A stretch of DNA of 64,000 nucleotides from Bernardetia sp. MNP-M8 (GTDB lineage: Bacteria > Bacteroidota > Bacteroidia > Cytophagales > Bernardetiaceae). Made by a program: the position numbers and the translations under genes. Where the stretch lies: the NCBI RefSeq assembly GCF_037126285.1, contig NZ_CP147012.1:3244676-3308675 (forward strand), read 5' to 3'. Below are positions 27,083-30,727 of this stretch, piece after piece. How positions within the stretch are numbered: position 1 is the stretch's first letter; each line of letters starts with the position of its first letter. The notes under the pieces are model-generated. The model was not told the DNA's origin. It saw only the letters and a list, made by a program, of their open reading frames with translations, and ran no database searches.

Positions 27083-28741
27083 ATGAAAACTATTGTAAGT
27101 ATCCTATTAGATAAATTTGAAGTTTCTTACACTATCACTTATTTACAAAAACTGACAGCAAAATATAATGATGCTCAAACATTAAGTGATCTTACTACAC
27201 TTTTAGCACACTATAAAATAGAGTCTTTAGCTGTTCAGATTGGAAAAGAACATTTATCAGAAATTCCTTTGCCTGCTATTGTTTTGGCTTCTCATAATGA
27301 TGAAAATGGAAGAACACACACTGATTATTCTATTTTAGACGAAGTTAGAGACAATGAAGTAGTCTTGATTAATGTGAATTCAGAGAAACAGATAGTTGAA
27401 ATAGAAGAATTTGAAAAATCATGGACAGGTTATACACTGTTATTAGATAAAAATGAAAATGCAGCAGAACCAAATTACTCTGCTCATAAAAAAGCACAAA
27501 AGAAACAACAGTTTTTTGACACTATAAAAAATACCATTCAATTTTTAGTGGGTATTTCTTTTTTATTTTTAGTTGGAAAAACTTTTTTTGACACGAATCA
27601 ACAAGTCACAAAGTCTATTCTTGAAATTTCCTTTTATATTTTACATACTATAGGATTTGTAATTAGTGCTATCTTACTTTCTGGAGAAATTTTTAAAAAT
27701 AATGCAGTTTTCAAAAAAGCTTGTACTGCCTTCGGAAAATCATCTTCATGTGCTGATACAAAACAAGAAAATACAAGTAAAATAGATTCAATCAAAAAAT
27801 GGTTTACCTTTTCAGAATTGGGTGTTTATTATTTCTTTGGGGCATTTTTATTTTTACTGATTGGTAATTTTAATTCTTTAACATTCGTTTTTCAGAGTTT
27901 GATTTCTGTTTTGGGGATTTTTGCAGTCATTGCATCTTTATATTATCAAAAGTTTATTCTTAAAGAATGGTGTTCGCTTTGTGTTTCTATAATGGCAGTT
28001 TTGTTTGTAGAATCTTTGGTAGGGGGAGTATATTTATTTAGCTTTCAAGATGAAATTTCATCTTTTACTTTTACTTTGTATTCTGTTTTTTCAATTTTAG
28101 TAATAGCTGTTTTTTCATTCCTGTTGCCTATATTTATTTGGAATATTTTAAAACCAGTTCTTGAAAAATATAACTCTTCTAATAACGAAACTAAGAATCT
28201 ACGTTCTTTTAAGTATGATTATGAGGTTTTCAAAACACTTCTTCATCAAAATAAAAAAGTAGATATAAGCGAAGTTCCAACCCATTTTGTAGAAGGAAAT
28301 ACTATTTCAGCCGAACTAGAGGAAGAAGAAGAGGAGAATAAAGTTTCTTTAGTTGTCATTAGTCGCCCTACTTGTCCACCTTGTATTAGTGCAAAGAAAG
28401 ATTTACAAAAATTGAGAGAAGATTTTGGCAATTATTTTACTACAACTATGTGCCATTTGACTCCCAATCAAACAAGTGAAGATTACAAGCAGATTTCAGA
28501 AATGTTATCCCATCTTCCGACATTTTATTCTGATAAAGAAAAAGAAAGTATCATTTCACAACATTATACTTGGATAAATCAGACAGGAATTACTTTTACA
28601 CCTGCTTTTATTGTAAATGGGTATTTATTACCAGAAAAATATACAGTTACTGATTTAGAGTATTTTTTAGTGCATTTGGCTAGTGAAATGGATGATTCAG
28701 AAGAAAATCCAGAAGAAGAACTATCTTTGCAAGAAAACTAA
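27083..28741 (+). CDS. Fusion protein with an N-terminal peptidase-C39-like domain lacking the catalytic Cys, a VKOR-like 5-TM core (loop Cys pair CTAFGKSSSC, TM 'CSLC') and a C-terminal thioredoxin-like domain ('TCPPC')
   Basis: 'IPLPAIVLASHND' and 'EEFEKSWTGYTLLLD' match the C39 C-terminal half but no Cys occurs in the first ~140 aa. Multi-TM middle with CxxC. 'VVISRPTCPPCISAKK' Trx motif. Confidence 0.7.
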   Translation: MKTIVSILLDKFEVSYTITYLQKLTAKYNDAQTLSDLTTLLAHYKIESLAVQIGKEHLSEIPLPAIVLASHNDENGRTHTDYSILDEVRDNEVVLINVNSEKQIVEIEEFEKSWTGYTLLLDKNENAAEPNYSAHKKAQKKQQFFDTIKNTIQFLVGISFLFLVGKTFFDTNQQVTKSILEISFYILHTIGFVISAILLSGEIFKNNAVFKKACTAFGKSSSCADTKQENTSKIDSIKKWFTFSELGVYYFFGAFLFLLIGNFNSLTFVFQSLISVLGIFAVIASLYYQKFILKEWCSLCVSIMAVLFVESLVGGVYLFSFQDEISSFTFTLYSVFSILVIAVFSFLLPIFIWNILKPVLEKYNSSNNETKNLRSFKYDYEVFKTLLHQNKKVDISEVPTHFVEGNTISAELEEEEEENKVSLVVISRPTCPPCISAKKDLQKLREDFGNYFTTTMCHLTPNQTSEDYKQISEMLSHLPTFYSDKEKESIISQHYTWINQTGITFTPAFIVNGYLLPEKYTVTDLEYFLVHLASEMDDSEENPEEELSLQEN

Positions 28742-28806
28742 TTATCAAAATAGTTTAAAGTTGTACCTAATTAGTTTCTACTACTAAGAATAATGTAAAT
28801 TTTGTA

Positions 28807-30138
28807 ATGGAAGATAATATAGAAAGAGAAGAGGTTTTTCGCTCTTATTCAGAAGAAACACAAGAATTATTGACAAGTCCACAAGGCTTTTTTATGCGTT
28901 CAGGTATTACAATCATCTTTGGTGTTTTGCTTCTAATGCTTGTCGTTTCTCATTTTATACGCTACCCTGAATTATCGACTTCAGAAGTAACACTATATGC
29001 AAATCAAGCAAAAGCAAGTTTGTTTCCAAAGATTAATAGCCGTATTATTTTTATAAATGCAGAACATAGTCAAGAGGTAAAAGAAAATGAGCTTTTATTA
29101 GTCTTGGAAAGCACAACAGATTGGAAAGAAGCCAAAAAGTTAGAAGATTATTTAGACACACTTTCTAGTCAAAATTCAGTATTTGAAAGTGTAGATTTTT
29201 TTCAAGAAAATGAAATTCCTCTTTTTACAAATTTGGGAAATTTACAATTAGATTACGAAAGACTAAAAAATAATATTTTAGATTATCAGTTATTTTCTAA
29301 AACTAACTCGCATGCTCAAAAACAAGCTGCTATTCGTTCAGAAATAGAAATTCAAAATTCGTTAAGAGTTATTTTACAAGAAAAATATGAACTTCAAGAA
29401 AGAGACTATGAGTTGAGCAAACAAAAATATATTACCGATTCATTATTGTATAAAAGTGAAGCAATTGCCAAACAAGAATTTTTACAAACAAAGAGCGCAT
29501 TTCTAAACAAAGAAAGTAGTTTTTTGCAAAATAAAGAAGCAAATCTAAATGCCCAAATGCGAGTTAGTCAGCTCAATCAACAGCTTGTAGAAGTTTCTAT
29601 TGCTTATCAAGAGCAAGCATTTAAGTATAAGCAACAATTACGAACTAGTTTTGCAACTCTAAAGAAAATGTTAGAAGATTGGAAAACCTCTTATTTGATT
29701 ATTAGTCCGATAGAAGGTAAAGTTAATTTCTTTAATCCTCTTAATTTGTATCAATCAGTTGGTATGGATAAAGAGGTTATTTCTGTTATTCCTCAAAAAA
29801 ATGCTATTTATGCCTATACAAAAGTAGACTCAAAACATATTTCTAAGCTCAAGGAGGGAAAAGAAGCCAATAAAGCAAAAATAAAATTAGAAGCCTATCC
29901 TTTTGCTCGTTATGGTTGGATAGAAGCAGAAGTTGCACAGATAAGCCTTGCGCCACAAGAAAATAAATATTCTGTCCAACTAAAACTAGACAATGGTTTA
30001 CAAACCAACAGAAAGGTCGAAGTAGATTTAGATTCTAAGAATGAAATTTATGGAACAGTAGAAATAGTTCTAGAGGAAAGAAGTCTACTAGATAAATTTT
30101 TGGAACAGACAGTCTATTCAGTTGAAGCCTTTGAATAA
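28807..30138 (+). CDS. HlyD-family membrane fusion protein (type I secretion / bacteriocin export adaptor)
   Basis: Cytoplasmic N-terminus, single TM 'IIFGVLLLMLVVSHFI', long coiled-coil region, C-terminal beta domain. Typical HlyD layout. Confidence 0.7.
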   Translation: MEDNIEREEVFRSYSEETQELLTSPQGFFMRSGITIIFGVLLLMLVVSHFIRYPELSTSEVTLYANQAKASLFPKINSRIIFINAEHSQEVKENELLLVLESTTDWKEAKKLEDYLDTLSSQNSVFESVDFFQENEIPLFTNLGNLQLDYERLKNNILDYQLFSKTNSHAQKQAAIRSEIEIQNSLRVILQEKYELQERDYELSKQKYITDSLLYKSEAIAKQEFLQTKSAFLNKESSFLQNKEANLNAQMRVSQLNQQLVEVSIAYQEQAFKYKQQLRTSFATLKKMLEDWKTSYLIISPIEGKVNFFNPLNLYQSVGMDKEVISVIPQKNAIYAYTKVDSKHISKLKEGKEANKAKIKLEAYPFARYGWIEAEVAQISLAPQENKYSVQLKLDNGLQTNRKVEVDLDSKNEIYGTVEIVLEERSLLDKFLEQTVYSVEAFE

Positions 30139-30156
30139 TAATAATACAGATAATAC

Positions 30157-30193
30157 AAAAAAAGCCTTTTTTCGTGAAAAAAAGGCTTTTCAG
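30157..30193 (+). terminator. Rho-independent terminator after the HlyD gene
   Basis: aaaaaaagcctttttt cgtg aaaaaaaggctttt. Confidence 0.7.
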
Positions 30194-30268: not shown

Positions 30269-30727
30269 TTAATTAGTCATATATTGACTCAAAATTGGGT
30301 TATCTCCCAAAATAGCGATTCCGACCATTAAAATTACGAGTACAACTCCCATTACAGTCATTGCACTTTTAAATTTGAATTCTTTCTTCATTACGTATGC
30401 AAAACCTGTAATCATTCCAACTGCGCCACCTAAAAGCGCACTACCAATAGCTAAAACAGCTATTCTACGAGCTAAGTTTACATCTGGATTATCCATAACA
30501 GAGTGCATAACAAAAACTTCTAAACCCACAGCGACCAAAAATACAACCATGCTTGTTAACATAACACGCATAATAAATGAAGGTGCTTGACCTGCTGGTC
30601 GGGATTGTACTTCATCAGAATCCAATTGATTAAGTTTTGCTTGTGCCGTTTCTTCAGATTCAAATTTAGAATCTCTGTCCATTGAGGTATAAGAAGTATC
30701 TTCTTGATTTGCTTGATAAGTTGCCAT
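30269..30727 (-). CDS. Hypothetical membrane protein (acidic N-terminus, 3 TM helices)
   Basis: ORF with clear hydrophobic segments. No recognised domain. Confidence 0.45.
   Translation of the reverse strand: MATYQANQEDTSYTSMDRDSKFESEETAQAKLNQLDSDEVQSRPAGQAPSFIMRVMLTSMVVFLVAVGLEVFVMHSVMDNPDVNLARRIAVLAIGSALLGGAVGMITGFAYVMKKEFKFKSAMTVMGVVLVILMVGIAILGDNPILSQYMTN

Follow-up and report, generated by a model that had tools for sequence, protein, structure and literature searches.

Three short precursor genes, a gene for a 552-aa fusion protein and a gene for a putative adaptor of the HlyD family follow one another in the genome of Bernardetia sp. MNP-M8, and the group ends at a terminator-like hairpin (Table 1). 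All positions refer to the window, by which we mean the whole 64,000-nucleotide stretch of DNA that was analysed. The ORF coordinates given earlier were found again, the right starts of the three peptide ORFs being 25855, 26563 and 26780. PADLOC assigned neither the fusion gene nor the HlyD gene to a defence system. A 152-aa membrane protein encoded just beyond the hairpin (30269-30727, minus strand) was considered as an immunity gene and set aside; it is kept only at related locus L003, which shares the downstream synteny, and is absent from L001 and L002.

Table 1. Features of the fusion-gene cluster of Bernardetia sp. MNP-M8, in window coordinates
Feature	Position	Strand	Basis
GG-leader precursor peptide 1, 56 aa	25855..26025	+	ORF/translation, leader DNA repeat D1, sub-threshold NCBIfam GG-type peptide matches
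GG-leader precursor peptide 2, 50 aa	26563..26715	+	leader DNA repeat D1
GG-leader precursor peptide 3, 61 aa	26780..26965	+	leader DNA repeat D1
Fusion protein, 552 aa: C39-like domain, extra TM helix, VKOR core (TM1-4), TM5, DsbA/thioredoxin-like CPPC domain	27083..28741	+	
C39-like domain (residues 1-135), non-catalytic and presumed to bind GG leaders	27083..27487	+	
TMa, extra transmembrane helix, residues 150-168, HKKAQKK on N side	27530..27586	+	hydropathy, TIGR01846 alignment
VKOR four-helix core, residues 179-320; loop Cys214/Cys223; Cys297-x-x-Cys300 at TM4 start	27617..28042	+	
TM5, residues 334-356, joins VKOR core to thioredoxin-like domain	28082..28150	+	
DsbA/thioredoxin-like domain, residues 416-530; Cys431-Pro-Pro-Cys434, cis-Pro motif Thr506-Pro507	28328..28672	+	
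Putative membrane-fusion adaptor of the HlyD family, 443 aa, with a TM near its N-terminus (about residues 33-51)	28807..30138	+	TIGR01843, below cut-off
Bidirectional terminator-like hairpin, end of operon	30160..30190	.	

The Cys-rich GG-leader peptides that had been said to adjoin the fusion gene are indeed there, all three of them upstream, with 6, 2 and 6 Cys in their cores. The leader of peptide 1 is MKSLKKKFGKFVVSEKEIQKLKGG, and an 86-nt leader repeat (D1) is common to all three genes. The leaders are 24 aa long and have the GG-type pattern, with a GG end and hydrophobic residues at -4, -7 and -12, and a peptidase-containing ABC transporter (PCAT; P0168) is encoded in the same genome. 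NCBIfam peptide models gave sub-threshold matches only. By these features the peptides can be assigned, as candidates, to the PCAT-dependent double-glycine-leader type (class II bacteriocin or microcin type), with a predicted cleavage site.

The three-part architecture of the fusion, with C39-like, VKOR and thioredoxin-like CPPC domains, agrees with the original prediction and is supported by Pfam and fold matches. The Pfam Peptidase_C39 match covers residues 5-125 (profile positions 18-132 of 133, E = 9.6e-15), about 86% of the domain and not, as had been thought, its C-terminal half only. Both C39-like motifs quoted earlier (EIPLPAIVLASH and EEFEKSWTGYTLLLD) were found, the papain-like C39 fold is present, and the top matches of a fold search are LahT150, PCAT1 and the C39-like domain of HlyB. 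A PDB sequence search with the family profile gave weak or spurious matches only, e.g. NaChBac, while the alignment to TIGR01846 runs on through TMa and pairs residues 5-200 with residues 5-191 of HlyB. There is no Cys in residues 1-150, as predicted, and the rest of the triad has gone with it; the match begins at profile position 18, and the His and Asp positions are occupied by D81 and V98. The same holds across the family, as neither Cys nor His is conserved among 157 representatives. A Cys stands at the catalytic position in 21 of these, accompanied by His and Asp only in two (P0033 and P0060). Because the catalytic Cys, His and Asp are missing, the N-terminal domain is C39-like and not a peptidase, and it is presumed to be a module that binds GG leaders.

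The VKOR match (Pfam, residues 185-309, E = 1.5e-7) reaches 32 bits against a cut-off of 27.5, and the hallmarks of PF07884 are present: a four-TM core, a Cys pair in a loop and a CxxC that opens TM4. Thioredoxin_2 stays below its cut-off (24.9 bits vs 27), as does Thioredoxin_4. The C-terminal domain nevertheless has the DsbA-like hallmarks: its Trx fold carries a helical insertion, a CxxC opens helix 1, and there is a cis-Pro loop. In the fold search it resembles periplasmic DsbA/ScsC proteins. The expected redox motifs are all in place (loop Cys214/Cys223, WCSLC at 297/300 and TCPPC at 431/434), and neither the six redox Cys nor the cis-Pro varies among the 157 representatives. Two further Cys, at 427 and 498, were considered as a strict structural disulfide, which would hint at the periplasm; this was rejected, with both present in 60 sequences, C498 alone in 45 and neither in 46. 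In the AF2 model the geometry between domains is poorly defined (pTM 0.38).

The fusion is widespread: clustering at 50% identity gives more than 1,000 clusters, and the named records are from Bacteroidota. Database names of its members are generic only and a literature search found no paper on a C39-like-VKOR-Trx fusion, in keeping with the earlier statement that this gene combination has not been functionally characterised. A profile search of a 5.8-billion-protein set with the broad family alignment returned Bernardetia relatives only, and the metagenome loci were gathered with a 15-sequence alignment. The search for Cys-rich GG-leader peptides around fusion loci gave 109 matches, against 5 in the reversed-sequence control. 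Of 77 metagenome loci, 59 have such a peptide within 1.5 kb of the fusion, and its Cys number is mostly 6 or 8, so that the fusion is not widespread without GG-leader neighbours; in most loci the peptide gene is less than 500 bp away. The core of a neighbouring peptide most commonly has 6 Cys, and even counts (77) outnumber odd ones (12). Among 42 well-flanked loci, 31 have a PCAT and 25 an HlyD homologue, which comes after the PCAT gene, and the catalytic motif DCGP is found in 30 of 31 PCATs with an intact N-terminus. TolC is sometimes encoded nearby, besides the active PCAT and HlyD, and an Emticicia operon holds genes for the fusion, peptides, TlpA, PCAT, HlyD and TolC.

The 443-aa ORF that follows the fusion gene in MNP-M8 matches the type I HlyD model TIGR01843 over residues 30-429 (E = 1e-19), though at 70.8 bits against a curated cut-off of 208.65, and has no Pfam match. 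Export had been proposed to run via this protein. An HlyD-type ORF does follow the fusion, but HlyD cannot export alone and needs a PCAT. The 64-kb window holds neither a PCAT nor a catalytic C39 peptidase, as stated originally, yet the translocation ATPase and leader protease are no longer unaccounted for, as a 738-aa PCAT (P0168) is annotated outside the window on the same 5.33-Mb contig. A 2071-aa S8 subtilase with a T9SS tail, encoded upstream, had been a candidate for the missing protease and was rejected, since none of the related loci encodes it and the genome has a proper PCAT. The distance between transporter and fusion varies within the genus: in Bernardetia OM2101 the PCAT adjoins the fusion cluster, while in B. 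litoralis it lies 2.2 Mb away, with peptides of the same leader at both loci. The HlyD-type protein would be the partner of this separate PCAT, and its homologue in Emticicia, annotated as HlyD, that of TolC as well.

The membrane part of the fusion had been described as a 5-TM core. Six hydrophobic TM segments were found, and the extra one, TMa, precedes TM1 of VKOR. Across the family the maximum 19-residue Kyte-Doolittle hydropathy of TMa averages 2.17, equal to that of the other TM helices, and in 94% of the 157 sequences its value is above 1.6; the segment is almost uncharged. An alignment-free scan gave exactly six TM segments in 103 of the 157. There is no N-terminal signal peptide, and in the family the C39-like domain reaches a maximum hydropathy of 0.97 on average. 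As the number of TM helices is even, the C39-like domain should lie on the same side of the membrane as the thioredoxin domain. On the side of these domains, Lys and Arg average 3.85 in the N flank, 1.93 in loop 3-4 and 3.73 in the C flank, vs 0.43, 0.13 and 0.18 on the opposite side; the bias is toward the domain side in all 157 sequences (102 of 103 by the alignment-free method). Seven canonical VKOR-Trx controls, including the crystal-structure protein 3KP9, have the mirror-image bias, with 5.1, 3.7 and 1.4 in cytoplasmic and 1.3, 0.9 and 1.6 in periplasmic segments. This reversal predicts a VKOR that faces the cytoplasm. The original prediction had combined a leader-binding C39-like domain with a periplasmic CxxC and Trx domain, an arrangement that does not fit six TM helices placing both domains together, on what the charge bias predicts to be the cytoplasmic side. 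The canonical VKOR trait of active-site Cys facing the periplasm or lumen is, on the same prediction (six TM, no signal peptide, reversed K+R), not shared by the fusion. The placing of both domains in the cytoplasm draws on the positive-inside rule, hydropathy and logic. The number of Cys in the C39-like domain, which shows no even bias (0 in 69 sequences, 1 in 58), also counts for it.

We give a probability of roughly 55% to the reading that the fusion is dedicated to the oxidative folding of the GG-leader peptides next to it, as an enzyme targeted to these substrates that faces inward and acts before export by PCAT. The dead C39-like domain would bind the double-glycine leader of the precursor, and the DsbA-like CPPC domain would then oxidise the Cys-rich core. 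The VKOR core, through its loop Cys pair and CxxC, would re-oxidise the CPPC domain and pass the electrons to menaquinone in the membrane, quinone reduction being proposed by analogy. The extra N-terminal TM helix, which makes six, would keep the leader-binding and disulfide-donating domains on one side, predicted to be the cytoplasm, and so give an inward-facing VKOR. The oxidised precursor would go to the separate active PCAT encoded elsewhere in the MNP-M8 genome, which would cut after GG and export the peptide together with the adjacent HlyD adaptor (and TolC in relatives).

The same dedicated oxidation may instead occur in the periplasm, as in canonical VKOR-Trx proteins, with the peptide oxidised after PCAT export and together with TlpA-like proteins. 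We consider this unlikely, although several observations speak for it and against the inward model. All structurally characterised bacterial VKORs face out (3KP9), and the C-terminal domain looks like periplasmic DsbA/ScsC proteins. Thioredoxins of the TlpA type, with signal peptides and CxPC sites, are encoded in most related loci and in B. litoralis, and therefore some thiol chemistry should take place in the periplasm too, which weighs against an all-cytoplasmic scheme. The bacteroidetocin locus has its own required thiol oxidoreductase, which we take to be exported and to act outside the cytoplasm. The genes for this enzyme and a 5-TM protein stand beside the peptide gene, and both are required for toxin production (PMC6671954). 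A periplasmic site could be reached in two ways, either with TMa not spanning the membrane (C39-like domain inside, Trx outside) or with both domains in the periplasm. The charge bias opposes either way, being reversed relative to the canonical controls in every one of the sequences. A TMa that does not span the membrane is difficult to reconcile with its hydropathy and near lack of charge, and a C39-like domain inside with Trx outside would need no conserved extra TM helix. For both domains to be periplasmic, a charged N-terminal domain of 135 aa would have to cross without a signal peptide, with the lysine-rich HKKAQKK on the N side of TMa, and a leader-binding domain there would have no leader left once PCAT has cleaved.

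Less probable still is that the C39-like domain and TMa form a docking module, e.g. a mimic of the PCAT N-terminus, that tethers the oxidase to the PCAT/HlyD complex, a role that would be compatible with the other readings. In Bernardetia the HlyD gene always comes directly after the fusion gene while the PCAT may be far away, and the triad has decayed further than that of the C39-like domain of HlyB, both of which would suit docking. However, the C39 and C39-like domains of known function (LahT150, PCAT1 and that of HlyB) bind substrate peptides, and it is the peptide gene, not the transporter, that lies closest to the fusion and accompanies it most generally. It is very improbable that the fusion serves as a housekeeping disulfide oxidase or as a producer-immunity factor and lies beside the peptides incidentally: its annotation is generic and some Bacteroidota have no DsbA/DsbB (PMC6671954), but its strong link to Cys-rich GG peptides and PCAT genes persists among very divergent members at 23-30% identity, several loci (L011 and L067) have two copies, each with its own peptides, and a domain derived from a leader protease has no housekeeping role.

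If the proposed reading is true, it would explain how the many 6- and 8-Cys GG-leader peptides of Bacteroidota, candidate bacteriocins or signals, are folded, some of them in lineages without general DsbA/DsbB machinery. Disulfide formation in the bacterial cytoplasm is unusual, and the predicted orientation would break the textbook rule that bacterial disulfides form outside the cytoplasm. It would also add disulfide installation to the leader-guided peptide modifications made before export, and a leader tag with one membrane enzyme would be a compact natural part with which disulfide-rich peptides could be made in the cytoplasm. The chances are about even that the family is the first bacterial inward-facing VKOR, driven by quinone and equipping ribosomal peptides with multiple disulfides while they are in the cytoplasm, with a dead C39 domain as the leader-recognition element before PCAT cleavage and export. 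Given the size of the family, this would make it a new class of RiPP-like maturation, widespread in Bacteroidota, and nature's equivalent of the cytoplasmic disulfide systems built by engineering.

The fusion resembles bacterial VKOR-Trx proteins (Synechococcus VKOR, PDB 3KP9/4NV2; M. tuberculosis VKOR) in its four-helix core, loop Cys pair, TM4 CxxC, TM5 and fused Trx-fold domain with CxxC, and by analogy the quinone-linked disulfide generation of those proteins would be expected of it. It differs from them in the extra N-terminal TM helix, the 135-aa C39-like domain, the DsbA-like nature of the CPPC domain and the mirror-image charge bias, which predicts the opposite orientation; and while they are general oxidases, the fusion is proposed to be dedicated to one peptide class. 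Unlike the C39-like domain of HlyB (PDB 3ZUA), which is part of an ABC transporter, that of Bernardetia is fused to an oxidoreductase and has also lost His and Asp. The sublancin and pediocin operons combine a GG-leader Cys peptide and its PCAT with a Trx-fold protein, a quinone-linked oxidase of the membrane, or both, on which correct disulfides depend. These oxidoreductases are from Firmicutes, are of DsbB type or single-TM Trx proteins, act outside the cytoplasm after export and have no counterpart of the presumed leader-binding domain of the fusion. The sublancin operon combines BdbA/BdbB with SunA/SunT, and that of pediocin includes PedC (PMC4336743, PMC6391423). The bacteroidetocin loci (class IIf) are from Bacteroidota, and activity there depends on the GG-leader Cys peptide together with a PCAT, a polytopic membrane protein and a thiol oxidoreductase, each of which is needed (Coyne et al., 2019, PMC6671954). 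In these loci the leader has about 15 aa, the mature peptide 42 aa and 4 Cys, the 5-TM protein (of unknown family) and thiol oxidoreductase are separate, the PCAT is adjacent, and a C39-like-VKOR fusion is not described; compared by description only, MNP-M8 has 24-aa leaders, 2 or 6 Cys and no separate gene for a 5-TM protein or thiol oxidoreductase in the window. For cytoplasmic disulfide formation, Hatahet and Ruddock reportedly inverted an engineered VKOR/DsbB by means of an added TM helix in 2013. Natural inward-facing VKORs are known in Crenarchaea; the Cys of VKORi from Aeropyrum pernix and Pyrobaculum aerophilum face the cytoplasm and drive disulfide formation there via a thioredoxin-fold partner (bioRxiv 10.64898/2026.03.26.714578). 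Whereas these crenarchaeal proteins are general cytoplasmic oxidases with a separate partner, the Bernardetia protein is bacterial, faces inward by prediction only, and has both its partner and a putative leader-recognition domain fused to it.

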